A stretch of DNA of 62,889 bases, counting the filler, from Folioceros fuciformis (Eukaryota), in the NCBI GenBank assembly GCA_049999805.1. It is 11 parts of 11 records of this genome, joined end to end, with 100 filler letters (N's around TTAATTAATTAA, not from the genome) between each part and the next. Parts side by side here need not be neighbours in the genome. Positions count along the whole stretch, not along the records: positions 33,353 to 42,796 come from JBNGIO010005196.1; 10 more parts are not named here. The stretch is one strand, 5' to 3'. The notes under the pieces are model-generated. The model saw nothing but the letters and a program-made list of their open reading frames with translations, made no database searches and had not been told where the DNA came from. The stretch's first letter is position 1. Each line of letters starts with the position of its first letter. The position numbers and the translations under genes are program-made. Below are positions 30,600 through 48,249 of the stretch, in pieces.

Positions 30600-30965
30600 T
30601 GAGCTAGGGCGCCACCGCCGCCGGTAGCTAGGGCACAGCCGCCGAGCTAGGGCACCAAGGTGTGTCTAGGGCACCGCCGCCGCCACCGGCTAGGGCGCCG
30701 GTTAGGGCGCAGCCGCTGGCTAGAGTTAAGGCACCAGCATGGCGCCACTCAGGCGCCAACGAGGCGCCAGCGAGGAGCCACCCGGGGGCCAACGAGGTGC
30801 CTGCAAGACGCCACCCGGGCGCCAACGAGGCACCAGCGAGGCGCCATTGGGGCGCCAGCGAGACGCCACCTGGGCCCCATCTGGGCGCCCGTGGGGCGAC
30901 ACCCGGACGGCAACAAGGCGCAAGCCGGGCGACACCTAGACGGCAGCCGTTCGCCAAGGGGACGC
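30600..30965 (+). repeat. GC-rich degenerate tandem repeats in the leader of an LTR element
   Basis: Repeated CTAGGGC(A/G)CCGCCG and GGCGCCAACGAGGCGCCAGCGA-like units. Confidence 0.6.
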
Positions 30966-33352: not shown

Positions 33353-33891
33353 CATCCATAGCATGTTCCCACTTTGTGTCTCCAATAGCTTCTTCAAAGC
33401 TTCTTGGTTCCACATCCTGTACAACCTTTGCCATATAGGCATGGTGCCTAGCTACATAGCTATCATAGGTCAACCGCTGTATTGGAACCTTCTGCCTTCC
33501 AGATCTCCGTGGGATTGAACCACTTCCAGGGGCTAATTGAACCTCTTTTGCACCAGGTGTTTCGATTTTTGGTACACCGAATTCCTCATCCAAGCTCTGC
33601 TCAGAGTCGCTTGAATCATCCGCACCTGCACTTAGGTCTGGTATCTTTGAATCCTGGACTTTTTCCTTCCCTTTGCGAGACACAGCTGTGGAGCTCGTAG
33701 GACTCACACTACCTCGCAACCTGCCACTCCATGGATTCTGAACATTTGTCGAGTTTGATGACGCTTGCGGTCCACTCAACACTTGTGATTGTTGACCTGC
33801 ATTGCTTGTTACCTCAGTTTCAAGCACATCAGCTACACTACTTCCTTGTACTTCAAAGTACCAGCTACCCATTTCATCAAAGACTACGTCT
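33353..33891 (-). pseudogene. Copia integrase C-terminus/linker fragment, interrupted at the (SR)DVVFDE motif
   Basis: DVVFDEMGSW...EPRSFEEAIGDTKWEHAMD. Homology stops at 33891, where TGTCGTGAAA begins. Confidence 0.85.
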
Positions 33892-35566
33892 TGTCGTGAA
33901 ATTGTGGCAAAAATGGACTTATAGTAGAGCATCATGGTGAATGTCATAGTTTAGTGGAATTCAGTTGATTAGATAATAGGTGATTAAACTAACTCAACCT
34001 AAATTAGGTAAATGGCTAAAATACTAGCCATGGCTACTTGCCCACTAGAAGCACGTGGGCTCATACAGCCCATGGAAAACTGCTTGGAGGGGCACCACAC
34101 ATAAAAACAAAACACAGCGAGGAAAAAGGTAGTTGTCGAAGTCGCTCATGAGAGGAACCACCGGACGACCTAAACCTTTTTTTTGCTGTTCACTAGCCGT
34201 CTATGAAAGGAAGAGCTATGCAGATTGAGGGTGTAAGGGAGATGGTGGCATCCCGCTAGTGACTTACCAACTCTGGGCAGCCCGACGAGGGCAGTCCCTT
34301 TTTGTAGCTTTACAACACGGAGTGAGCTATGGCGCATGTGAGCAGCCTAACATCTTACTTCGACAACTACCTTTGTCAGGCAATGAGGGCACGGGCGAGG
34401 AGCTCTTAGAGCGCAGCCAAGCAGCTACAGCAAGGCAGCATTTGTGGAGCACCATCCAGACCCGTTTGTGTGAAGTCTGTCATTTTCCCTTTGCATTGCT
34501 AGGGATTTAGGGTTTGTAGGGACTCTAGGGGCGCGGCCAGACATGTGCATTCAGGCAGCAGCCTTGGAGAATCCCTCTCTTCCTTTGTAGCAGCCGTGAG
34601 TCTGGAATGTGCATGCTCAGTGTTGTAGCAACTACCTTTCTACTCGCAGCAGCTACATGTTGATCCAAGGCTCTATAGACAGGGCTTAGGAGAGCTGGCA
34701 GCTAAGGCACCGCCAAGAGACCACATCGAGGCAGCCCCAGCAAGTCGCTCAGCATTTGACGCACTTAAGCCTCTGGTTTGGGGTTTGAGGGTGTGGAAGT
34801 CAAACTTCAGGAGGACATAACGGCCGCAATTCCGCTTGTCTGCCTTAGATCTACATACCAACAGATTTGTCGTGAAGAGGCGAACATTTTGGAAGAGGGA
34901 CATGGCTGATCATGGATGCTTTGGGGAGGGGTAGATTTCTTGTTCCCTCAGTACTCCAAGAAAGTTGTGTTTCTTTGCTTTCTGATCACAGTTACACCTG
35001 CCCAGCAAGCCTAGGGAATTGAGATTTTCCAGGGGTAGGATTTTCCCAAACTAGGATTATCTGGATAGGGAGTAGCTGAGCTTTGCTCACACTCATTCAG
35101 ACTGTGGGGGGCAGCTGTAAGCTACGACCAGACGCGGCATGAAGGGAGGCCACCATCAGATTATTTGGGAGGAGCTAACCCTCATTTCTTGCATGCGTGG
35201 TTTGTTGGAACCACATGTTTAGGGGCTCGTTTTGCCTTTGAGAACAGGGGTTTGATTTGGAGGCCAGCAACAGCCAGTAGAAGCCTGAAAGTACTGTGGG
35301 TACAGCTGAAGCAGTGTGTGGTGTCCCAGCGAGAGTCACTTCCCTAGGCCCGGTGTTGTCAATTGCAGCACAGCACCTCACTGTTTTTGCCAAGCACCAG
35401 CTGTAGGTGTAACAGGGGTGCATGGGGTATGCAACCAGATCAGCAAGAGGCCAGCCTACGTTACCGATTGAGGAGTCGAGACATTCCTATCAGGGTATCA
35501 CCGGAGCGTGCACAACGGAGGAGAAGATGGGCAGCTCGACGACGCCAACTTGCAAGTTGAGAAGAC

Positions 35567-38500
35567 TTGAGAGAGGACTTGGAACCAGCAACATCCGTTG
35601 GGCAACCCAGCTGGTCACCCCTCTTAGACTTGGGCAAGATTGTTGTGCTAACTAGCTCAAATTTAGGGGGTCAGCTAGTTTGTGACGAGGAACCTGAACA
35701 ACAAGGGTCTCTCTATTCACAGCAATCATTTGTGAGGTCACAGCAGACACATCCAGGGTTTGCTGGGTCTGTCCTTGGTGTAGGGCAAGGCCTGGGTGAC
35801 TTGTCTGAAAGGTCAGACACCATGGAGGGTGGTTCATCAGGGTTTAGGCCTGAGAAATTCTCAGGCAGACCAAGCACCCAATCCTTAAGGGACTTCCGCT
35901 TGTTCATCAATGCAGTCATCAGCAGGGTGAAGTTCAAACATGGTGCTGCCTACAACCACCAGTACATGTTTGAACAGTTGTCCAGCTACTTAGGAGATGA
36001 GGCATTGGATTTGTACGAGGCTCACCAGGCTGAGCTATCGGGCACAATTGCCACTCCTAACCCAGCCCATCATTCGGCTCTACAGTTGGCATATAATGCC
36101 AAACTGGCAGCAGCCATTAATGACCATCAGGCTGAGATTGTAGCCAAGACCATCTCCGCCACCACACCACCTCCAACGGTGGTGAATTTGACACTAGCAG
36201 AGCGGGCTACTGCCACAACTGGTGTGCAAGAGTTTCTACACACTTGCAAGTACCTGAACCCAGTGGAGGAGTTCCTAGCTATTTTGGAGAGGGCATTCCC
36301 ACTGAAGACCCCAGAGAAAATTGCAGAACTTGCTGCCTTTGCTCGCAAAAAGGGGGAGACAGTCCAGATGTGCTTCAGGAGGCTACAGAAATTGAGGGAA
36401 GGTACAGGGATGTTAACAAATCAGGAAGCAGCGCAAAGGTTTTTGACTGCACTTGAAGGAGACCCGTTGTTTCATTTCCAGCTGGTTACATCCTTGGTGG
36501 ACAAATATGGGGACAAGTATACTTTGGAGCAAGTGCATGAAGAAGCTGAGAAGAAGGAGGTAGCCTTTTCGGCCTATGCCTCTCGGCATTCCAAGGCCTT
36601 CACGCACTACCAGTCCATGTTCTCTAGCAAGGGGGCAGCTAACACAGGTGCAGGAGCCAAGGCTGGTCAGATTAAGCCAATTAAGGTAGCTTCAGCAGCA
36701 GCTCCAGCGGCAGCAGTGGTAGCCATGTGTAACCATTGTGGCAGCCCTGAGCACATGTCCCCTGCATGCAAGTGTCCTCCAGAGGGACTCTACTGCACCC
36801 ATTGCCAAAAGAATGGACACGTGGTTACTGTGTGCTTCCAAAAGCACCCCGAACGAAGATACCAGAAGATTGGTACCGTAGGGTCTGCAGGAGCCACAAT
36901 TGCTAGTGTGGAAGCAGGAGGAACGAGGAGCGTTGTTGGGTTGTCCCGCAGTAAGCAGCAGCGTGACAAGGCCAAGGCTAAGGCAGCCGCCACTGCTGAC
37001 AAGGTCAGCTCCCTTGAGGCTTCCATGGCTGCCATGACAGCTCAACTTGGAGTCTTGACAGCCAACCTGTCCAGCATCACCGGCTCTTCCAAACCAGCCA
37101 ATGTGGTGAAGTTGGTACCAGGACCAGAGGATGAGGATTATGGCCCAGCACACCAAGTATGTATGGTTGACAGAATTGGTGAGAGCAGCATGGAGGTGGA
37201 GTTGCCAGCCACATGGGTGGGGCAGAATTTACAGGTGGTCATGGGAACAACAGCACCTGCCTTAGGGCCCATCACCAGGAATCGAGGGCCTAGGGCTACC
37301 ATGCCAAAGTCCTTTGCCCCGCTGCCACCGGGGTCTGCAATTCCGGTACGAGGCCAGGAGCACTCAACGCTGCGTGTGGAACAGCTGCCCACGAGTAGAA
37401 CACCTGGCCATAGCATGCCAACACCAGAGCATGTGTATCTCTTACCCCAAACCACCACAGTCACACAACTGGCTGCCAAGCTAACTCAGGTGCCAGTTTT
37501 CACACTGCAGGACATGGGCATCACGACCAGCAGGCTGAAGGAAGTTCTTCAAACTGCTGAAGCCACGGCTGCATCTGCTGACCCTAGCCTGGGTACAACG
37601 TACACTTCACAATGGGTGCTGCCAATAGCGATGTCACACTCTACAGGTGGGCAGACAGCACCAAGTCACTGCAATGGCTCTTACACTGTACAGCTAGCTG
37701 AGGGAGTTGACAGCCAACCGCGAGTGCAGTCCACCAATCGACTGCAAGCTCGTGTCAGCAATGCAGTTGTTGACAATCGTTGTGGGCACGTCACAATCAA
37801 TGGGTATGCACCCAGAGTGGTGTTGCTAGACACGGGAGCCCAACCAGTACTCGTTGGGAAGATTCTAGCTGCAAGGTTGCATCTTCAGGGTGATGCATTG
37901 CATACCTCGCCTTGGAACATCAGGACGGCATCCGGGGCTATTGAACCAGTCTGTGGTGAGACAGTCCAACCCCTGGACATCACCTTGAACTCGGGCACGC
38001 CAGATGCCATGACATTGTCCTTGCCCTGCCTGGTAACCACAGCCACCAACTATGATTTGCTGTTGGGGCAAGAGTTCCTCTTTCCACCAGGAGTTGGTGT
38101 GGATAACTGGACTGAGCAAGCCTTCTATAGGCCTGACTGGAAGCAAGGAGGTTGTCGCATTGCACATCTGCCATTAGATTTGCATGGCCAGGTGGAGGTT
38201 GATGTAGCCACTTTGGTGAAAAGCCCGGCTGTAGTTGGTATCAAAAGTAGCAATGTGGTGGAGCTTGTCCAAGACACATACCAAGTGGACAAGCATCTAG
38301 AGACCAATGTTGCAGAGGCCCAAGTGAGGTGTACTAGTTTGCAGCAAGCTCTAGTTCAGCCTGACTGTCCAAAGCAGGCAGAGGCATTGCTGACCAAGGC
38401 ACAAGAGCAGGTCAGCAAGGTGCAACAATTGCTAGAGGCCGGGACCCTATCATCTTGTCCCACATCTTATGTGGACAATACTGTCATCATATGGGCACCG

Positions 38501-41500
38501 GCTGCGCTAGCCCTTACAGTCGTTGAACTGTTTGGTGGTATTTGTACCGGGTTAGAAGCTTTGCTCTTGACCGGTTTGAGCATTCAAAGGTACCTTTACT
38601 GTGACAAAGACCCCGTTGCCAGGCAAATTGCTGCATTTCGGCTGCAGGGTCTACAACATCGTTTCCCACAGCAATTGTCAGCTGAGGCTTTGGCTAATAC
38701 ATTCACGTCCTTACCTCATGACGTCCAGTATATACAGCAGGGCCACATCCAAGCCTTGGGCCCCATCGACATGGTCATAGCTGGCTGGGAATGCCAAGGA
38801 TTCTCTCAAGCTGGGGTAGGTGCAGGGTTGACAAATCCACGTTCTGGTCTGTTTAGAGATCTCCAACAAATCTTGGCATGGGCACAAGATAGTAACTCTC
38901 AATGTGCATACCTGCTCGAGAACACACCAGCCCAGTTTGATACCCGGCCACAGGTGCAGCAGGATATGGCCATTGTGCGACATTTTGCAGGGCCACCATT
39001 CCTCATGGATGCTGTGCAGGTGGGTAGCTATGCCCACAGGCTTCGTAACTACTGGACCAATTTGGTCCCTGTCTCCGTGTTGGACTTGGCTCTCTGGAAC
39101 ACTAGCAGGGATCCAGGGCTGCAACTTTGTACTGTATTGGAGAACTACCACCAGCCACGACCTGTGGTGGCCAGTGAGAAAGCCCCTTGGTTCAAGACCA
39201 ACATTCCAGGTCAGCCAAGGCAGACGTTGCCCACGCTGGTCAGCTTTCCGGGTTCATTTGCTTACAGAGGAGAAGGACCTGGCTTATTATTGAATACTGA
39301 AACGCAACGGTGGGAAGAACCAACAGTTGAGGAGCGAGAGCGACTCATGGGTTTTCAAACCCATAGTACAGCGGCCCCCACTGTCACCAATCGGCAGCGC
39401 AAGGGCACTCTAGGACGAGCCATGGACCTCCATGCCATCACATGGTTGGTGAGTTTGTGCCTTGCCTTTCAGCTGCACACTCAGGTCACTCCCATGCTAC
39501 TCCCAGGCTTGTTTGCTAGCATCTGCCCTGGAGATGCTGTTCACCTCCCATTCCCAGGATACACACAGCTGCCTTTTTGGCTAGATGCTGGGGGGGGGGA
39601 GTACGCAGTATTGGCATCACGTACTGTTTACTCAGCATCTGATCAAGCCAAGGCAGAAAAGGAGGATCCAGGAGCTACACCCAAGCTGTCTGTTGTTAAT
39701 TTCCCGTGGAAAATGGGCTCAGAACTCAGTCTGAAGCAACAGGACCGCATTCGTAACTTGCTGCTTAGGTACAGGGACTGTTTTGCCTTTTCCATGCATG
39801 AGCTCAAGAGGTGCAATGTCACAACCTTTCGCATCAACCTTACCACCCAAGAGCCTGTATACAGGCGACAGTATAGGCTGAGCAAGACGGAATGGGACAT
39901 GGTGGATGCAAGATGCAAGGAGCTGTATGAGGCGAACCTAATACGTCCCTCTAACAGTGACTACGCTGCTGCCACCGTGATGCCACCCAAAAAGGACAGT
40001 CAGGGTTTGTGGACTGAGAAGAGGATGTGTGGCGACTATAGGCCCATCAATGCAGTAACTGCCCAAGATCGGTACCCAATGCCAACACCAGAGGAGATCT
40101 TTGACCGTCTTGGACAGTCTATGTTCTTCTCCACGCTGGACCTGCGACAAGGGTTTAACCAGGTCCCAGTGGCAGCTGAAGATATCAAGAAGACAGCCTT
40201 CCATGGTTCTCAACAGCTATGGGAATGGCTAGTGATGCCCTTTGGATTCAAGAATGCGCCAGTGACCTTTCAGCGCATCATGGACATAGTACTAGCTGGA
40301 GCCGGCTATCTCATGTGCTACATTGATGATGTGCTAGTCCACAGCATGGACTTCAAGGATCATTTGGTACACCTGGAAGACCTGTTTATAAGATTACGGA
40401 AGGCACAACTCACGTGCCACCCAGCCAAGTGTGAGTTTGGCATGAGCACTGTGGCGTATTTGGGTCACAGAATTGTCCCCAATGGTGTCACCCCACATGC
40501 TGCCAAGGTTCAGGCAATTATGCAGGTTAAGGAACCGACCACCGTATCAGCCCTGCGTTCATTTCTAGGGTTATGCAATTACTATCGAGTATACATACCC
40601 AATTTCAGCAGGATTGCCAAGCCTCTTAATGATCTGCTGCGCAAGGATGTAGAGTGGACATGGGCAGAGCAGGCACAACAAGCTTTTGACACCTTAAAGC
40701 TGGAGCTAACAGTTGCACCAATGTTGGCCAGACCCAATTTTAACAAGCCCTTTGTAGTTCACACAGATTGGAGTAGTCTAGGGCTAGGGGCTGTGTTGGC
40801 TCAACAGGATGAAGCAGGTTGTGAGCGTGTGGTTGCTTACGCCTCGCGTAGCAACAATCGAGCTGAAGCCAACTATAGCAGCTACGAGGGTGAATGCCTC
40901 GCTGCTGTGTGGGCAGTGTGCCACTTCAGACCATATTTATATGGTCAGAAGTTCACACTCGTGACAGACCATCAACCACTCAAGTGGCTGATGACCAACA
41001 CCAAGCTCAGTGGCAAACTCGCACGTTGGGCCATGATCCTTCAAGATTACGAATTCCAGGTTGAACATCGGCCGGGAGTGAAGCACCAGAATGCTGATAC
41101 CTTGTCACGAAATCCTGACAGCAGTTGTGTGGATACCACTGGAGCTCGCCAAGATGGAGAGTACAGCACAATGCTTGCCGTATCGGCTCTGGTGGCCATG
41201 ACTTGCTTGGGACAGGTGCCTGTAGGTGCAGCTCAGCAATCCTCCAAGGATATTTGGGAGGATCCAGCTACCCTTCAGTATGTGCAGACAGGTAGAGAGG
41301 ACCCCACTTGGACCACGGCCACAAGGGAACGAGTTCACCAACGGGCTACCAAGTATTGTTGGCGGGACGGACATCTCATCCGTCAACAGGCTCAAGGAGT
41401 GGAGCGATTGGTACCCCCACCAGCAGATCGTGCTGCCCTCATCAAAAGGGTGCATGATGACATGGGTCATTTTGGGGTCAAACGCACCTACAGCCTGTTG

Positions 41501-42721
41501 ACTCCCTATTTCTACTGGAATCGAATGCATGAACAAGTGAAGGAACGAGTAGCCTGTTGCGAGCAATGCGACCGTGTCAAGGCTTCCTTCACCATGCAGC
41601 ACCCAGAGCTGCACCCTTTGCCCATCATGGGTTTATTCTTCAGATGGTCATGCGACCTGATGGGTGAGCTCCCGCAGTCTCCACGAGGCAACCTGTATGC
41701 GATGATCATGATGGAACACTTCAGCAAGTGGGTGGAGGTAGTGGCCCTGCCAGACAAGACCTCTAGGAGTACCTCACAAGCCTTCCTACAATGTGTGCTC
41801 AGTAGGTTTGGTGGCTGCGCAGAGTGTCTCACAGATCAGGGTTCTGAGTTTCGAGGAGAATTCCAGGATCTAATGGATGCAGCCCTTATTGACCACAGGA
41901 GAACTAGCCGGGACCACCCGCAGGCTGATGGCTTAGCCGAGCGCATGGTCCAGACTATGAAGAAGGGGCTTCGCAAGCTGTGTCTCCGAGAACCCAAAAC
42001 AGATTGGGATCTCTTGCTTCCATATATTGCAATGGGTTACCGCATGAGCAAGCATGCTGCCCTTGCCCATTTTTCCCCTTACTTCCTCTTGTTTGGCAGA
42101 GAACCAATTCCACCTAGTTCTATAGCCAAACAAATGCTAGAAGTTGTCAAGCTGGATGATGCAGCTACATGGGCACGTGTGATAGGTAACAGGGCAGCCT
42201 TGTTCAAACAGGCCATGCCCATGGCAATGGCTAACTTGCACATTGCCCAGCATAGGGATACCCTTCGTTATGCACACACTAGGGGAGGCAGTTTTAGGCC
42301 CAAGCTCAGGAAGTTCCAGGTAGGAGACTTTGTTTACCTGCAGAGGCAGACCTCAGATACCCTGGACACTTCCAGCAGTCGGCATGTGTTGCGGATTCAG
42401 GAGGTCAAGCCTAATGGCATCCTGGTATTGCAAGGCTCAGATGGTCGGATCACCACTGACCACACCAAGAATTGCGCACCTTGCCACTTGCCCAATCTTG
42501 ATCCTTCTATTGTCACAGCAGATTGGATTCCACCAACGGACTATCCTTGTCAGGTTTGTCAACGCACAGATGATGCTGACCTCATGTTACTTTGTGATGG
42601 CTGCAATGGGGGTTTCCACCTTTTCTGCTTACAGCCACCACTTACCCATGTACCGGAGCAACTTTGGTATTGTCCCAAGTGCCAAACGGACACAGCAGGT
42701 GTGACCAGCCTAGGAGTGTAG
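35567..42721 (+). CDS. Gypsy polyprotein Gag-CCHC2-protease-C5 DNA methyltransferase-RT-RNaseH-integrase-PHD (first ATG 35822)
   Basis: Gag PEKFSG; knuckles CNHCGSPEHMSPAC and CTHCQKNGHVVTVC (36728-36835); protease LLDTGA (DTG at 37829); DNMT motifs (38513-39470); RT MCGDYRPIN, MPFGFKNAP, YIDD (40319); RNaseH HTDWS, TDHQPL; integrase HHCC, CDLMG, TDQGSEF, ADGLAER; PHD. Gypsy domain order, no stops. Confidence 0.96.
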   Translation: MREDLEPATSVGQPSWSPLLDLGKIVVLTSSNLGGQLVCDEEPEQQGSLYSQQSFVRSQQTHPGFAGSVLGVGQGLGDLSERSDTMEGGSSGFRPEKFSGRPSTQSLRDFRLFINAVISRVKFKHGAAYNHQYMFEQLSSYLGDEALDLYEAHQAELSGTIATPNPAHHSALQLAYNAKLAAAINDHQAEIVAKTISATTPPPTVVNLTLAERATATTGVQEFLHTCKYLNPVEEFLAILERAFPLKTPEKIAELAAFARKKGETVQMCFRRLQKLREGTGMLTNQEAAQRFLTALEGDPLFHFQLVTSLVDKYGDKYTLEQVHEEAEKKEVAFSAYASRHSKAFTHYQSMFSSKGAANTGAGAKAGQIKPIKVASAAAPAAAVVAMCNHCGSPEHMSPACKCPPEGLYCTHCQKNGHVVTVCFQKHPERRYQKIGTVGSAGATIASVEAGGTRSVVGLSRSKQQRDKAKAKAAATADKVSSLEASMAAMTAQLGVLTANLSSITGSSKPANVVKLVPGPEDEDYGPAHQVCMVDRIGESSMEVELPATWVGQNLQVVMGTTAPALGPITRNRGPRATMPKSFAPLPPGSAIPVRGQEHSTLRVEQLPTSRTPGHSMPTPEHVYLLPQTTTVTQLAAKLTQVPVFTLQDMGITTSRLKEVLQTAEATAASADPSLGTTYTSQWVLPIAMSHSTGGQTAPSHCNGSYTVQLAEGVDSQPRVQSTNRLQARVSNAVVDNRCGHVTINGYAPRVVLLDTGAQPVLVGKILAARLHLQGDALHTSPWNIRTASGAIEPVCGETVQPLDITLNSGTPDAMTLSLPCLVTTATNYDLLLGQEFLFPPGVGVDNWTEQAFYRPDWKQGGCRIAHLPLDLHGQVEVDVATLVKSPAVVGIKSSNVVELVQDTYQVDKHLETNVAEAQVRCTSLQQALVQPDCPKQAEALLTKAQEQVSKVQQLLEAGTLSSCPTSYVDNTVIIWAPAALALTVVELFGGICTGLEALLLTGLSIQRYLYCDKDPVARQIAAFRLQGLQHRFPQQLSAEALANTFTSLPHDVQYIQQGHIQALGPIDMVIAGWECQGFSQAGVGAGLTNPRSGLFRDLQQILAWAQDSNSQCAYLLENTPAQFDTRPQVQQDMAIVRHFAGPPFLMDAVQVGSYAHRLRNYWTNLVPVSVLDLALWNTSRDPGLQLCTVLENYHQPRPVVASEKAPWFKTNIPGQPRQTLPTLVSFPGSFAYRGEGPGLLLNTETQRWEEPTVEERERLMGFQTHSTAAPTVTNRQRKGTLGRAMDLHAITWLVSLCLAFQLHTQVTPMLLPGLFASICPGDAVHLPFPGYTQLPFWLDAGGGEYAVLASRTVYSASDQAKAEKEDPGATPKLSVVNFPWKMGSELSLKQQDRIRNLLLRYRDCFAFSMHELKRCNVTTFRINLTTQEPVYRRQYRLSKTEWDMVDARCKELYEANLIRPSNSDYAAATVMPPKKDSQGLWTEKRMCGDYRPINAVTAQDRYPMPTPEEIFDRLGQSMFFSTLDLRQGFNQVPVAAEDIKKTAFHGSQQLWEWLVMPFGFKNAPVTFQRIMDIVLAGAGYLMCYIDDVLVHSMDFKDHLVHLEDLFIRLRKAQLTCHPAKCEFGMSTVAYLGHRIVPNGVTPHAAKVQAIMQVKEPTTVSALRSFLGLCNYYRVYIPNFSRIAKPLNDLLRKDVEWTWAEQAQQAFDTLKLELTVAPMLARPNFNKPFVVHTDWSSLGLGAVLAQQDEAGCERVVAYASRSNNRAEANYSSYEGECLAAVWAVCHFRPYLYGQKFTLVTDHQPLKWLMTNTKLSGKLARWAMILQDYEFQVEHRPGVKHQNADTLSRNPDSSCVDTTGARQDGEYSTMLAVSALVAMTCLGQVPVGAAQQSSKDIWEDPATLQYVQTGREDPTWTTATRERVHQRATKYCWRDGHLIRQQAQGVERLVPPPADRAALIKRVHDDMGHFGVKRTYSLLTPYFYWNRMHEQVKERVACCEQCDRVKASFTMQHPELHPLPIMGLFFRWSCDLMGELPQSPRGNLYAMIMMEHFSKWVEVVALPDKTSRSTSQAFLQCVLSRFGGCAECLTDQGSEFRGEFQDLMDAALIDHRRTSRDHPQADGLAERMVQTMKKGLRKLCLREPKTDWDLLLPYIAMGYRMSKHAALAHFSPYFLLFGREPIPPSSIAKQMLEVVKLDDAATWARVIGNRAALFKQAMPMAMANLHIAQHRDTLRYAHTRGGSFRPKLRKFQVGDFVYLQRQTSDTLDTSSSRHVLRIQEVKPNGILVLQGSDGRITTDHTKNCAPCHLPNLDPSIVTADWIPPTDYPCQVCQRTDDADLMLLCDGCNGGFHLFCLQPPLTHVPEQLWYCPKCQTDTAGVTSLGV
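38513..39470 (+). other. C5 cytosine DNA methyltransferase domain, DNMT3/DRM-like, within the polyprotein
   Basis: Motif I VVELFGGICTG; HDVQYIQQGHIQALGPIDMVIAG; motif IV GWECQGFS; VI YLLEN; VIII AHRLRNYWTNL; IX EERERLMGF; X RKGTLGRAM. Canonical, non-permuted order. Confidence 0.92.
42548..42682 (+). other. C4HC3 PHD finger at the integrase C-terminus
   Basis: CQVC...LLCDGC...FHLFC...PPL..VP...WYCPKC, with all eight Zn ligands. Confidence 0.93.
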
Positions 42722-42896
42722 CTCTTGTCGTGCTCTTTCATGCTTTCAGCCCGTCCATCAGCTGGGGGGGGAAGGCATGGACAATCTTTTTGTTCTNNNN
42801 NNNNNNNNNNNNNNNNNNNNNNNNNNNNNNNNNNNNNNNNTTAATTAATTAANNNNNNNNNNNNNNNNNNNNNNNNNNNNNNNNNNNNNNNNNNNN

Positions 42897-45800
42897 CTTG
42901 TTTTAACCTCCTTTGAGCATGGCGGGGGTGACATCTCAACAGGCCCTTCTTGCTTCATACCCATGTCTTCACAAAGCTGCCTTTCCCACTCAGCCTCCTT
43001 AGTGGCTTCGGTGAGTGCCTTGTACTCAGACTCTGTGGAAGACAGGGAGATGGCTGCTAGTTTTCTACATTACCAGTTAACTACAGAGGAGTTGGCCAGA
43101 AAACAATAAGCTGATATACTTTTTCGGGTGTCTGCATCCGAAGCCCAATTTGCATCTACATAACAAGTTAGCTGCAAATGCTTCTTCCCGCTTGGCATAT
43201 AGCAAAGGCCATAATTAGGTGTACCCTTAAGGTACCTCATAATTTGCTTGATAGCAACCCATTGATCCTTTCCATGGGATTTTAGAGAATTAGGCAACAA
43301 CGTTGACTGTGTTGGATATATCGGGTCTTGTCTGATTACTTAGGAACATGAGGGTGCCAACTACCATGCGATAAGGAATATTTTCCATCTCCTTTTTGTC
43401 TTCTTTAGATTGGGGACATGAGGCAAATGAGAGCTTGACTCCAAACGCACCTGGGGTGGTTGACGCCCTAGCATTCTCCATTATGAATCGTTTGAGCATA
43501 CCGGCTACATATCTACCTTGGTGAAGATAGATAGCACCTGTGGTATCCCTATGTACATGCATGCCAAGGATATACTTAACCTTTCCCAGGTCCTTCATCT
43601 CGAATTCCCCGCTGAGGTCAGCTTTTATCTTGTTGACCAGTTCAACGTTATTGCCTGGAATGACTAAGTCATCCACGTAGAGTGCAACTAGAACAAGTGA
43701 GCTATCCTTGCGTAGCATATAAATATTAGTATCTGCTTCACTTTGAACAAAACCTATTTTCTTAAGATATGAATCCATTCTCTCATACCATAGTCATGGG
43801 CTTTGCTTAAGGCCATAAATTGAGCGATTAAGTTTACACACCTTTTGTGAACAAGCCTTATGTTCGTAATCCTCGGGTTGATCCATGTAGATCTCTTCCT
43901 TAAGATGACCATAGAGAAAGGCTGTACACACATCAAGCTGATAGATCTCCAAGTTTAGTTTAGCACATAAAGCAAGGAGCATTCTAACTGATGCAGCCTT
44001 GACGACGGGTGAGTAGACCTTATCGCCTTGACAATCCACTCCCTCTTTCTGACTATATCCCTTAGCTACTAATCTCGCCTTGTAGCGAATTCGTGGCTCT
44101 ACTTCCTGGAACTTAGTTTTAAGAACCCATTTGCACTTGACAGTGGTCCTACCCTTAGGCAGACTAACCAAAGTCCAAGTGTTGTTTTTAAGTAATGAGT
44201 TGTACTCATCATCAATAGCCAGCTTCCATTTGGCTGCCTGGGGTCTCGAGTAAGCCTCCTGTAAGGTTAAAGGATCTCCCTCTGCAGCAGCAACACTTAA
44301 GGCATAGAGAGCATCCGAAGAATTAACATAGGTTAAGCTAGCTTGATTAAACTCAATATCAAATGGTTGTTCCTTCCAGAGATGCCTAGGCTGGCGCACA
44401 CGAGTAGGATATCTACGTTCAGGAGCAGCCGAGGGCCTAGGTGGGGATGGAGGAGTGACAGGTGCTTGAGGAATATCATGGGGCACCACGTGTTCAAAAT
44501 CAACGTGTTCAACATCACCTTGTTCCATACGTGGGTCCTCAGATACTACCTCGTGGTCTATTTCTATGTCCCCCTCTTGAGCAGGAATAGGTGACGTAGG
44601 AGCGGTGCACTTGGGGAGCAGGACCAGCAATAGGCAGCACTAGAACTGCTTGAGGGATAGGAGCCATAGGAGAAGGAGGAACACTAACAGTCGGAAAAGT
44701 AAAGGGCTGAACAAAGTGATCAATAGAAGTATCATCGGAAGAGCGAGGAGTGCTCGAGCCAGAGGAAGCACCAGCTTGCACGTCAAGAGGAGACTCAAAT
44801 GACGTCGCAAGAGCAGGTACTATCTTAGCTTCATGAACGGTGACAGTGCGGGCATAGATAGGAATCTGAGAGTCCAAGTCCACGAGCTTGTAGGCTTTGC
44901 GGTCATCGCCATAACCGACAAACACCAACTTGCGAGCACGAGCATCAAGCTTGTCGCGAAGCTGTGATGGGACAAGAGCATAGGCAGGGCAACCAAAAAC
45001 ACGAAGATGTGCAATTAAAGGCTTGCTCCCATGCCAACACTCATAAGGAGTACGGCCAGAAACCGACTTGGTGAGGACTCTGTTCTTAATATACACCGCA
45101 GTAGACACAGCCTCAGCCCAAAAGGACTTGGGCAGTTGGGACTGTGCCAGCATGGCACGAGCCATGGACATCAAATCGCCATTGGCCTTCTCGGCAACGC
45201 CGTTCTGCTCAAAAGTGTAGGGCACTGTAAACTGACGCAAGACACCATGCTGCTCGCAGAAGTCGCAAAACTGATGGTTGTTTAGTTCTCCCGCATTGTC
45301 GGAGCGAATACACCGAAGTTTATGGCCAGTCTGTAACTTAGCCATAGTAACAAAGGGTGAGAACACATTAAACGAGTCACTCTTAAGACGGATAGGAAAG
45401 GCAAACGTATATCGACTAAAGTCATCCACAACAGCCATAAAGTGATTTGCTACGCCTAAAGACGAGACAGGTAGAGGACCACATAAATCAACGTGGACCA
45501 AATCAAGAGGTGCCAAAGACCGACGAGCAGGAAGAGTAGGATAAGGGGAACTTCGCTGTTTAGCAAGGACACAAGCTTCGCAGAGAGGCTGTGTTGATGG
45601 AAGGTGAGGAAGTTTATCCCGATACAAGTCCTGTTGGGAGGTGGCAAGCAGTCGAGCAGGGTTGAGGTGCCCGAGTTGGCAATGCCACAAGAGAGTTGCA
45701 CCTGGATGCGAGCTCCTATGAGGCTGGTCTCCGTGAGAGGAAACCACCGTAGAGGCAGCCGCTGAAGTCACGGGCTTGCCTGAAAAGACATATGACGAGG

Positions 45801-45997
45801 ACGAGGACGACCTTTAGCAACAAAAACCCGAGGGTTTGAAGTCCGAGATAACAGACAGTCTCCAGGGCCAAAGTTGAGGCAAAAGGATCCGTCCCGCACG
45901 AGCTGTCTAACAGAGATAAGATTCTTGGCCATCTGGGGAACATGTAGCACATTAGTAAGAAACAGCAAGGAACCATCATCCAAAGTAAAGGATCTAA
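42897..45997 (-). pseudogene. Degenerate Copia pol (protease end-integrase-RT-RNaseH)
   Basis: NVLHVPQMAKNLISV, WHCQLGH, IRSDNAGE, QNGVAEK, LDVCTAFLYG, LYVDD, YVDANWA. Confidence 0.92.
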
Positions 45998-46631
45998 TGT
46001 GTCTTTCACTAATGCGCACGGAGAAGTGAGGGCACAAGAAGAAAAGATTGGCAAGCTCTATTGCTTGAGTGGGAGCGTTGTCATGCCGAGGTCGAGCATT
46101 GAGGAGGCAAATGTGGTACAAAAGAACACTAACAAGTTGCTCTTATGGCACCAAAGGCTAGGACATCTTGGCGTTCAAAACATCAAGCTCATGGATCGTA
46201 AGAAAATGGTGCAAGGACTCGATCTTGGTGAAGACGAAGACATTGGCGTTTGCAAAGGGTGTATTATGGGTAAGCAACACCGCCTTCCATTTCCAAAGCA
46301 AGGAAGTAGATCCAATCATTTGTTAGAGGTGGTGCATACAGACATCTGTGGTCCCATGAAGACCACATCCATAGGAGGTGCTAAGTATTTTCTTACCTTC
46401 ACGGATGATAAGTCTAGATATACGAAGGTGTACTTTTTGAAATCCAAGGAGGCATGCTTCTCCAAATTCAAGGAGTACAAAGCATTTGTGGAGAACCAAA
46501 TTGGGAGAAAGATCAAGACTCTACGAAGTGACAATGGAGGGGAGTACATGTCCAAGGAATTTGAGATGTTTTGCAAGGAGCACGGAATTGTTCATCAATT
46601 CTCAGCACCTTATAGTCCTCAACAAAACGGA
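45998..46631 (+). mobile_element. Copia GAG-pre-integrase/integrase fragment
   Basis: LWHQRLGH, VHTDICGPM, LRSDNGGEY, PYSPQQNG. Confidence 0.9.
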
Positions 46632-46731
46632 NNNNNNNNNNNNNNNNNNNNNNNNNNNNNNNNNNNNNNNNNNNNTTAATTAATTAANNNNNNNNNNNNN
46701 NNNNNNNNNNNNNNNNNNNNNNNNNNNNNNN

Positions 46732-46950: not shown

Positions 46951-47130
46951 TCAGGGAGCCGCACGGAATGTGCTTGAGGAGTGTTGTTTGAGGATCCGTG
47001 GTGGAAGCAGAGCCTGCAAGTGCCACATGCGCAGCAGCTGAAGATGCGGCGTCTTTCGGTGGATGACAGGGACTGGTAGTCTCTCGCGTCCCTGTGCTGG
47101 TACGGAAGGGGAGGAGTTTCGGGGAAGGGC

Positions 47131-48249
47131 GTGCGGCGATACCTGGCGGATCCCTCTGTTCCTCGTTCCTGCTCCTTGTATCGCGGCGTGGCAGGCGAGC
47201 TTGGCCCTGTCGGGCCTGGAGGATACCAAGTGGATGTGATGCGTGAAACAGTGAGCAAGCTGTGTGAGGAGGGTCGGCTCAAGGAGGCTGTTGAGGCTTT
47301 GGGAATTCTGGTGCAAGTAGGGTGGCACGTTTCCAAGTCCCTCTTGTATACGGTGCTCAGGGGGTGTGTTGTACAGAAGGATCTTCTTCTAGGGCGCCGT
47401 GTGCACGCTTTCACGGTTCAGAAGGGGTACCAGTCGGACACTTTCCTGGGCAACCACCTTCTGCGATTGAACGCTTCTCATGGCAGATTGCAGGACGCGA
47501 TGGATGTGTTCACCGTCGTTGCCAGTCCAGATGCCTTCATGTGGTCTTCCATAATTTCTGCGCATGTGAAACGGGGACTGCACAGGCAGGCTGTAGAGCT
47601 GTATCGTAGGATGCGCAGGTCGGGTGTGGAGCCCGATAGCCATGTTTTCGTGTCTGCCCTCCAGGCGTGTGCAAAGGGGGAAGATTTGATGGCTGTCCAG
47701 GAGCTGCATGCCGAAGTATTGGCCAGTGGGTTTGGGCGGGATTTGTTTGTTTGTAATTGCCTTGTGGATGTGTATGGGAAGTGTGGCAGGCTGCGAGAGG
47801 CTAGAAGGGTGTTTGACGGACTCGTTGAGAAGGACGTTGTGATGTGGACTACCATGATATCAGGGTACTCCCAGCAGGGCATGGGGCAGGAAGCACTTCT
47901 TGTCTACAGTGCTATGCTGGAAGGAGGCCTGGCTGTACCCAGCTCTGTGACTTATGTCTGCCTCCTGCAGGCATGTGCAAGTGTGGGCGACCCTGCTCTG
48001 GTGACGGGGAAGCAGCTCCATGAGCTAATCAGAGCACAAGGACATCTGGCTAATGTGTCTGTAGCCAATAGCTTGGTGAACATGTATGCGAAGTGTGGCA
48101 GCCTAGAGGATGCCCACAGATTGTTTTGTGAAATGGGTCAGAAAGGCGTGGTGACGTGGACTGCTCTAGTTGCAGGGTATTCCTTACAGGGCAAGGGCCA
48201 GGAGAGGTCAGACGTTATTTGGCAAACAAGCCTAAGGTGGTTGTCATAA
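47131..48249 (+). CDS. PLS-class pentatricopeptide repeat protein, C-terminally truncated (possible pseudogene)
   Basis: Repeats FMWSSIISAHV, CNCLVDVYGKCGRLREARRVFD, VMWTTMISGYSQQG, ANSLVNMYAKCGSLEDAHRLF, VTWTALVAGY. Homology ends mid-repeat at ~48204, with no E/DYW domain. The upstream in-frame ATG at 47044 is blocked by TAG at 47077. Confidence 0.88.
   Translation: MRRYLADPSVPRSCSLYRGVAGELGPVGPGGYQVDVMRETVSKLCEEGRLKEAVEALGILVQVGWHVSKSLLYTVLRGCVVQKDLLLGRRVHAFTVQKGYQSDTFLGNHLLRLNASHGRLQDAMDVFTVVASPDAFMWSSIISAHVKRGLHRQAVELYRRMRRSGVEPDSHVFVSALQACAKGEDLMAVQELHAEVLASGFGRDLFVCNCLVDVYGKCGRLREARRVFDGLVEKDVVMWTTMISGYSQQGMGQEALLVYSAMLEGGLAVPSSVTYVCLLQACASVGDPALVTGKQLHELIRAQGHLANVSVANSLVNMYAKCGSLEDAHRLFCEMGQKGVVTWTALVAGYSLQGKGQERSDVIWQTSLRWLS

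Follow-up and report, generated by a model that had tools for sequence, protein, structure and literature searches.

A Ty3/Gypsy retrotransposon in the genome of Folioceros fuciformis (GenBank assembly GCA_049999805.1) carries, at the C-terminus of its integrase, a PHD finger whose nearest solved relatives in sequence and fold are the fingers of KDM5 (PHD1), UHRF1, WSTF and BAZ2 proteins. The element lies on contig JBNGIO010005196.1, positions 33353-42796 of the window (the whole stretch of 62,889 nucleotides that was analysed), and is an intact member of the Gypsy-DNMT3 kind exemplified by KnitGypsy-Dnmt3 (de Mendoza et al. 2018). The finger is conserved among relatives of the element, where it is usually paired with a DNMT3-like DNA methyltransferase, and is proposed to function as the C-terminal module of the integrase and to be maintained by selection. 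Its fusion to the integrase, its retention after loss of the methyltransferase and its marks of a histone H3 reader make a chromatin tether for integration the best-supported reading. The whole chain, in which the PHD would tie the integrase to chromatin with unmethylated Lys4 of histone H3 (H3K4) by analogy with the chromodomain of chromoviruses, is put forward with moderate confidence.

The finger and its place on the integrase

The eight zinc ligands of a complete C4HC3 PHD (C2330, C2333, C2345, C2348, H2353, C2356, C2371 and C2374, in canonical spacing) span exactly the interval 42548-42682, from the start of Cys1 to the end of Cys8 (amino acids 2330-2374), as the initial annotation of this DNA had proposed, and the stop codon follows 12 codons after Cys8. 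The Pfam profile PHD (PF00628) matches over its full length (positions 1-47 of 47) with an E-value of 1.2e-11 and a score of 44.8 bits, well over the profile's cut-off (24). Key residues of the finger are D2340 (42578-42580), D2346 (42596-42598), G2351 (42611-42613) and W2369 (42665-42667), the last being the PHD-specific Trp two residues before Cys7, which is kept in the fingers of 153 of 164 relatives. A RING-CH or other zinc finger is ruled out by the PHD match in Pfam, by this conserved Trp and by the lack of a RING match at E<=0.01. Nor does the integrase end in a chromodomain: no Chromo family is matched at E<=0.01 in the polyprotein, and the C-terminal module is the PHD. At position 42686, two residues past the last zinc ligand, the covering contigs of runs X1, X2 and X3 (three of the four runs described below) read C where the window has A, which changes Thr to Pro.

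It is very improbable that the finger does no more than provide the integrase with a structural zinc module (for multimerising or for binding DNA), that it acts as a RING-like E3 module, or that it is a passenger in decay. C4HC3 spacing is common to RING-CH fingers, and some relatives lack the finger altogether; against this, the Pfam result and the Trp before Cys7 identify a PHD, the surface residues that contact H3 in related fingers are conserved, and the finger has been retained across relatives only 33-52% identical in the tail region.

The finger follows a barrel in the integrase tail. The motif KFQVGDFVYL (amino acids 2251-2260) opens a five-stranded beta-barrel in an AlphaFold2 model for which the last 168 residues were aligned with 23 relatives (A1), P0099 being excluded for a long insertion in its finger. 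The model has a mean predicted local distance difference test score (pLDDT) of 82 and comprises a helix, the barrel (strands 39-43, 54-64, 69-73, 79-83 and 87-89, in pLDDT blocks of 80-96), a poorly ordered linker and a PHD fold (strands 124-126 and 133-135 and helix 154-161, pLDDT 90-95). Pfam gave nothing above noise for the barrel, so that the term SH3-like, under which this tail had first been described, rests on the model and on the Foldseek pairing with Tudor barrels. When barrel and PHD were searched together, Foldseek aligned them to the Tudor-PHD cassettes of UHRF1 and PHF1 at a root-mean-square deviation (rmsd) of 12-16 A, so the likeness holds domain by domain and not in the two-domain arrangement. 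The finger alone superposes at 0.7-1.4 A overall: on BAZ2B at 1.2 A over 52 columns, on UHRF1 at 1.1 A over 49, on BAZ2A with unmodified H3K4 peptide at 1.3 A, on the ATXR5-H3 complex at 0.8 A over 45 and on DPF2 at 0.7 A over 47.

The PHD, sitting after the integrase C-terminal barrel, takes the place that the chromodomain has in chromoviruses (PMC6673714, citing Gao et al. 2008), which agrees with the initial placement. In both cases a chromatin reader is fused directly after the integrase barrel of a Ty3/Gypsy element, and the proposed role, integration steered by histone marks, is the same. The two differ in that the reader here is a PHD, with the H3 N-terminus carrying unmethylated K4 as its predicted ligand, as against H3K9me for the chromodomain.

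Likeness to readers of the unmethylated H3 tail

Against PDB chains, phmmer matched 95 distinct sequences with E<=0.01, and Lid/KDM5 PHD1 ranks first (2miq, 6.3e-16). The nearest solved sequences are Lid/KDM5 PHD1, KDM5D, UHRF1, WSTF, KDM5A PHD1, KMT2C/D, BAZ2B, CHD4, ATXR5 and ORC1b, while Spp1, which is taken here to be the first H3K4me3 reader in that ranking, holds rank 52 among the 60 best listed of the 95 (E 1.9e-07). The resemblance to KDM5 PHD1, BAZ2 and UHRF1 fingers noticed at the outset is thus borne out by sequence and fold, and includes WSTF: E-values for these four groups run from 6e-16 to 1e-13, and in the fold search KDM5A/B and Lid PHD1, BAZ2A/B, UHRF1 and WSTF show 38-47% identity over about 45-72 columns. 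With them the finger shares an acid five residues before Cys3 (Cys3-5), an Asp after Cys3, the P...W pocket and the absence of a cage Trp; it differs from them in residing in a retroelement integrase.

According to the account of Bortoluzzi et al. (2017, PMC5415848), readers of unmodified H3, such as BAZ2A/B, UHRF1, MOZ, DPF3 and KDM5 PHD1, are marked by an acidic wall of Asp or Glu just before beta-1; this acid is frequently present twice and almost never coexists with the methyl-K4 cage Trp. KDM5A PHD1 is described as using E305/D306, D312 for Arg2 and L309/P331/W335 for Ala1 (bioRxiv 10.1101/715474). Through alignment to 7klo these contacts map to A2339/D2340, D2346 and L2343/P2365/W2369 of the present finger. 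D2340, aligned with KDM5A D306, holds the acidic-wall position (E1689 in BAZ2A, on a numbering relative to Cys3 that is partly assumed), and G2351 stands two residues before the zinc-binding His (His-2), presumably the site of the methyl-lysine cage Trp, where only one of the 164 family fingers has Trp. By the acidic-wall/no-Trp rule the finger is therefore predicted to belong with readers of the unmethylated H3 tail, and the H3K4me0-type signature suggested in the initial annotation is recovered, at the level of sequence, in D2340, D2346 and the Trp-free position. Across the 164 PHDs of the family, all eight ligand columns hold Cys or His in 158, the residue after Cys3 (2346) is Asp or Glu in 156, and the four positions before beta-1 (Cys3-8 to Cys3-5) include at least one acid in 139; the Ala1-pocket columns keep P2365 in 157 and W2369 in 153.

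Several observations weigh against this class assignment and the role built upon it. Only 54 of the 164 fingers have an acid at the acidic-wall position itself (Cys3-5), and 112 have one either there or at Cys3-6, so that the unmethylated-H3K4 signature is not uniform in the family. Three KDM5A contact residues are replaced here, E305 by Ala, D315 by Asn and G333 by Gln, and this too sets the finger apart from its nearest solved relatives. PHD fingers are alike in general, which makes a class read from nearest neighbours suggestive only, and fingers of the UHRF1 type bind non-histone N-termini as well, as the PAF15 and Stella entries among the Foldseek matches illustrate. Four relatives with the domain order of the window's element (type A, below) end without a PHD, including P0070, its sister and closest relative in the integrase tree, and the sole insertion seen, a single case, lies in another repeat.

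Some of these points bear on the identity of the ligand. The finger may bind a differently modified H3 tail (for example K9me3 or K14ac), an H3-like host N-terminus or a host factor for nuclear entry or tethering, an alternative that is considered unlikely but carries some weight. Among its close solved relatives are the PHD of UHRF1 (with peptides of PAF15 and Stella), fingers of DPF/KAT6 (with acylated H3K14) and Ehd3 (with H3K4me1), and the acidic wall varies as just described; however, the conserved Ala1 pocket and Arg2-binding Asp (P2365, W2369 and D/E2346, in the counts given above) point to an H3-type N-terminus as the ligand, and Pfam finds a single finger rather than a double PHD.

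For the preferred reading, a tether to H3K4-unmethylated chromatin, we infer three steps beyond a conserved PHD of the unmethylated-K4 class: H3 binding, a preference for unmethylated Lys4 and an effect on the integration site. The PHD would most likely bind the H3 N-terminal tail with Lys4 unmethylated, with the acids D2337, D2338 and D2340 as proposed contacts; Arg2 would lie on Asp2346, and Ala1 in the pocket L2343/P2365/W2369. It would in this way tether the complex of integrase and complementary DNA to nucleosomes without the active-promoter mark, in the manner of the chromodomain of chromoviruses.

The methyltransferase and its co-occurrence with the finger

One stop-free frame of 2386 codons (35561-42721, + strand, first Met at 35822) runs through the contig in the order Gag-protease (PR)-DNMT3-like methyltransferase-reverse transcriptase (RT)-RNase H (RH)-integrase (IN)-beta-barrel-PHD. 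The Gag-PR-RT-RH-IN complement of Ty3/Gypsy and a DNMT3-like catalytic domain within the Pol frame are both recognised, by Pfam, PDB matches and motifs. The features of the element are as follows.

33892..34356, + strand: 5' terminal direct repeat A (starts TGT), from contigs of runs X1-X4, boundaries deduced
35822..42721, + strand: gag-pol single open reading frame, first Met to stop; stop-free from 35561, 2386 codons stop to stop
36728..36835, + strand: two Gag CCHC zinc knuckles, amino acids 390-403 and 412-425, pattern C-x2-C-x4-H-x4-C read in the sequence
37790..38080, + strand: aspartic protease, Pfam PF13975 and PF13650, E about 2e-06
38513..39550, + strand: DNMT3-like C5 cytosine methyltransferase, amino acids 985-1330, between protease and reverse transcriptase, from PF00145, PDB matches and catalytic columns
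39986..40474, + strand: reverse transcriptase, Pfam RVT_1, E 6.5e-28
40661..41050, + strand: RNase H, Pfam RT_RNaseH, E 5.4e-39
41414..41917, + strand: integrase H2C2 zinc domain (PF17921, E 4.8e-16) and catalytic core (rve, E 2.7e-11)
42314..42481, + strand: integrase C-terminal five-stranded beta-barrel (SH3/Tudor-like) with KFQVGDFVYL, from AlphaFold2 and Foldseek; no Pfam match
42548..42682, + strand: PHD finger (C4HC3), from Pfam, PDB sequence search, AlphaFold2, Foldseek and family alignment
42772..42796, + strand: short direct repeat B, of which only the beginning is present because the contig ends at 42796, deduced from joints in the contigs of the runs

The methyltransferase is matched weakly by Pfam (PF00145, DNA_methylase, 21.3 bits against a cut-off of 22), and all 29 PDB matches of amino acids 985-1330 are DNMT3A, 3B or 3C (best 1.6e-10). 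Its catalytic columns are nearly invariant across 240 related DNMT segments (C1078 in 238, E1120 in 239, R1160 in 237 and R1162 in 238), which indicates that the domain is under constraint; motif IV reads EC instead of PC, as does the majority of the family (E 141, P 76). The initial annotation had placed a de novo methyltransferase in the same element as the PHD. A DNMT3-like domain with all catalytic motifs does lie in the frame that encodes the PHD; de novo activity of the Gypsy-DNMT3 class is putative, the domain of KnitGypsy-Dnmt3 having given no methylation in a yeast assay that its authors call inconclusive (PMC5890265).

The finger and the methyltransferase occur together across the family, which bears out the co-occurrence check proposed at the outset. 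A search with the integrase tail and finger yielded 99 long polyproteins, in which PHD and DNMT were scored by phmmer with segments of the polyprotein; the finger was found in 97 and a homologous DNMT in 89. Since a sample selected by the tail is biased towards the finger, the DNMT segment was also searched alone, with 61 long proteins from a word-indexed search and, from an exhaustive search of 1.84 billion representatives (50% identity clusters), 1840 matches at E<=1e-3, of which 250 at E<=1e-30. Among the best 150 DNMT-selected representatives examined, 90 end before the integrase tail and 60 reach it, and 53 of these 60 informative relatives carry the finger. The other seven comprise three that end 55 residues or fewer from the barrel, two (P0221 and P0169) with what resemble decayed fingers and two (P0153 and P0162) with a long fingerless tail. 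The finger is a trait of the lineage: of 171 related proteins in which the integrase is complete, 163 have it.

Reader and writer are paired in most relatives, yet each can be lost alone, and the two are not obligately coupled. A DNMT but no PHD is found in P0070, P0134, P0141, P0153 and P0162, while the DNMT-less P0022, P0028, P0038, P0044, P0032 and P0064 are nested among DNMT-bearing relatives and all keep the finger, which fits a role linked to the integrase.

These losses bear on the proposal that the element rebuilds the logic of DNMT3, in which the PHD would sense H3K4me0 and direct or activate the element's own DNMT on chromatin or on the new copy. Such coupling would agree with the presence of both modules in one frame, with their pairing in 53 of 60 informative DNMT-selected and 89 of 99 tail-selected relatives and in both domain orders (PR-DNMT-RT... 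and ...RH-DNMT-IN), and with the conserved catalytic motifs. It is nevertheless judged distinctly unlikely: the finger (amino acids 2330-2374) lies about 1000 residues from the DNMT (985-1330), behind RT, RNase H and integrase, protease processing would probably part the two, each module is kept where the other is missing, and the yeast assay of KnitGypsy-Dnmt3, though inconclusive, was negative (PMC5890265). The polyprotein, moreover, has no ADD or PWWP match in Pfam. The ADD domain of DNMT3 likewise places a histone reader and a DNA methyltransferase within one protein, but ADD is a unit of a GATA-like finger and a PHD that adjoins and regulates the methyltransferase, whereas here a lone PHD stands on the integrase, and the claim of a rebuilt DNMT3 fails on this architecture and on the independent losses. 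With the PHD acting as an integrase tether, the DNMT would be a separate module, and reader and writer would be connected through the life cycle of the element rather than as an ADD-like unit.

Two domain orders are found among the relatives. The majority order is RT-RH-DNMT-IN-barrel-PHD with a further tail of 100-500 residues, and its named hosts are the chlorophytes Haematococcus, Chlamydomonas eustigma, Monoraphidium, Pseudoscourfieldia and, without a DNMT match, Pleodorina. The window's element and a smaller set, termed type A, have the order PR-DNMT-RT-RH-IN-barrel-PHD, with Closterium as the named host, and form one clade of 12 tips in the integrase tree (support 0.99; FastTree, midpoint root). 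This clade includes two proteins without a DNMT match, of which P0006 is too short to tell, and three, P0070, P0084 and P0134, without a finger detectable by phmmer; P0070 ends 23 residues past the barrel, and the tail of P0084 is divergent and rich in Cys and His. In the type-A proteins P0072, P0077, P0087 and P0009 the finger ends in C-x-x-H, a C4HC2H variant (159 fingers of the family have C in this column, and 4 have H).

Tails of 100-500 residues beyond the position of the PHD are seen in the chlorophyte-type relatives P0012, P0017, P0032, P0136, P0138, P0153, P0162, P0093 and P0118, and the window's element has no such tail. They contain a conserved barrel-like block (HGR.V.K.F...G.V.F.G...Y...Y.DGD.ETM) followed by another domain, whose motifs DPF/W-x-G-x-G and S-P-P-F/W are taken here to be amino-methyltransferase-like. 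Pfam returned nothing on these tails other than a weak Tudor match in P0153 (E 0.076), and Atlas gave only leads under 0.9 (MTS 26%, N6_Mtase 14%). The tails may relate to the DAM-LTR elements of a recent preprint (10.64898/2026.05.21.726589).

Copies, flanks and known elements

Counts of copies within the genome rest only on those contigs of four runs (X1-X4, one organism) that carry the element, and their depth cannot rank gene parts. X2 has 509 contigs on the element, 135 of them at 99% identity or more, 104 at 95-99%, 85 at 90-95% and 185 below 90%. Over the finger, diverged contigs span 42160-42685 (84 differences in 526) and 42620-42735. Within the window, a tblastn search with the polyprotein found only itself and no second copy. 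Unlike sequence precedes 33892 in five contigs each of X2 and X3 and in one of X4, and two joints were observed, from 42796 (plus 87 letters) to 33892 in X1 and from 34356 to 42772 in X2 and X3. Joints and unlike left flanks fit an A-internal-B-A-B layout, DIRS-like, rather than two plain long terminal repeats (LTRs), and this is the repeat layout given in the legend to Fig. 4c for KnitGypsy-Dnmt3 (PMC5890265). The 3' end itself was not seen directly, as the contig ends at 42796.

The left flank (33354-33890, - strand) holds an open frame of 179 codons (DVVFDEMGSWYFE...PRSFEEAIGDTKWEHAMD), presumably similar to a Copia Pol linker, for which Pfam gave nothing above noise. In X2 and X3 this flank has about ten times the word depth of the element, which suggests that the element inserted into another high-copy repeat.

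The window is a chain of short contigs in which 10 linkers have the form N44-TTAATTAATTAA-N44 and a run of 100 N occurs three times, so that neighbouring features need not adjoin in the genome. On the next contig, long frames with Copia-type integrase and reverse transcriptase motifs lie in opposite orientations at 43290-45813 (- strand) and 45948-46679 (+ strand), the latter running into a linker. A frame of PLS-type pentatricopeptide repeats (PPR) at 47080-48249 (+ strand) matches land plants only; identity is highest, at about 50%, with unnamed proteins, and the named matches include Diphasiastrum, Adiantum, Ceratopteris, Calypogeia, Sphagnum and Selaginella. The assembly would thus probably be that of a non-seed land plant, a reading that draws on a different contig from the element's own. 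A tandem array at 30718-30959 comprises 16 registered copies of an 11-base unit and is rich in GGCGCCA.

Parts of this picture are already known, namely Gypsy-DNMT3 elements (PMC5890265), PHD fingers in transposable elements (TEs) and LTR elements with chromodomain and methyltransferase (10.64898/2026.05.21.726589). KnitGypsy-Dnmt3, from Klebsormidium nitens (de Mendoza et al. 2018, PMC5890265), is likewise of the Ty3/Gypsy type: its Pol contains a DNMT3-like domain that lacks introns, is not rearranged and keeps the catalytic residues, and its repeat layout fits the joints described above. Differences lie in the finger, since the running text of that paper contains none of the terms PHD, zinc and PF00628 (0 each), although its figures or supplements may show the domain; in the range, as that element was reported from a single charophyte and the relatives found here are far more widespread; and in the host, a charophyte there as against land-plant-type PPR genes on neighbouring contigs of the window here. 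No K. nitens protein was among the matches of the integrase-tail and DNMT searches. PHD fingers recur as accessory domains in TEs of green algae and other hosts, among them CR1 long interspersed nuclear elements, REM1, Gypsy-7a_cRei and Chlamys Penelope-like elements, and a chromatin-targeting role has been proposed for them (PMC6673714, PMC8557442, PMC9940879); in the sections consulted, none is described with an integrase-C-terminal finger paired with a DNMT, and the legend for Gypsy-7a_cRei puts the PHD before the integrase. EpiLTRs (preprint 10.64898/2026.05.21.726589), as described there, also combine a histone reader with DNA methyltransferases in one element, but these are a chromodomain with adenine and DNMT4-like cytosine methyltransferases in place of a PHD with a DNMT3-like enzyme. 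The literature searched yielded no PHD at the C-terminus of an LTR-retrotransposon integrase, no Gypsy-DNMT3 element in land plants, and no account of an unmethylated-K4-class PHD at that position with DNMT3 or of the breadth of the clade, the figures and supplements of PMC5890265 again being where such a domain may appear.

A more far-reaching and rather speculative scenario, thought unlikely as a whole, would see in these elements a deep Gypsy clade of the green lineage (chlorophytes, Closterium and probably the land plant here) with an epigenetic toolkit of its own. The reader of unmethylated H3K4 would pick the landing site and the DNMT3-like writer would methylate the new copy, with the chlorophyte branch adding a barrel and a second methyltransferase-like domain, so that the element would install itself as pre-silenced or camouflaged chromatin through a TE-encoded circuit of reader and writer whose evolution was independent of host DNMT3-ADD.

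For the reading of histone marks by a retroelement integrase, the chromodomain is the standard example. If the reading preferred here is true, a second and widespread type of integrase reader, a PHD of the unmethylated-H3K4 class, occupies the chromodomain position. Gypsy-DNMT3 elements, known so far from one charophyte, are also shown to range over many green algae and, probably, into a land plant; the DNMT search alone recovered 250 representatives at E<=1e-30. Confirmed binding would provide a direct handle on the target choice of PHD-DNMT3 Gypsy elements, and would bear on whether methyltransferases encoded by TEs act on the element's own new copies.

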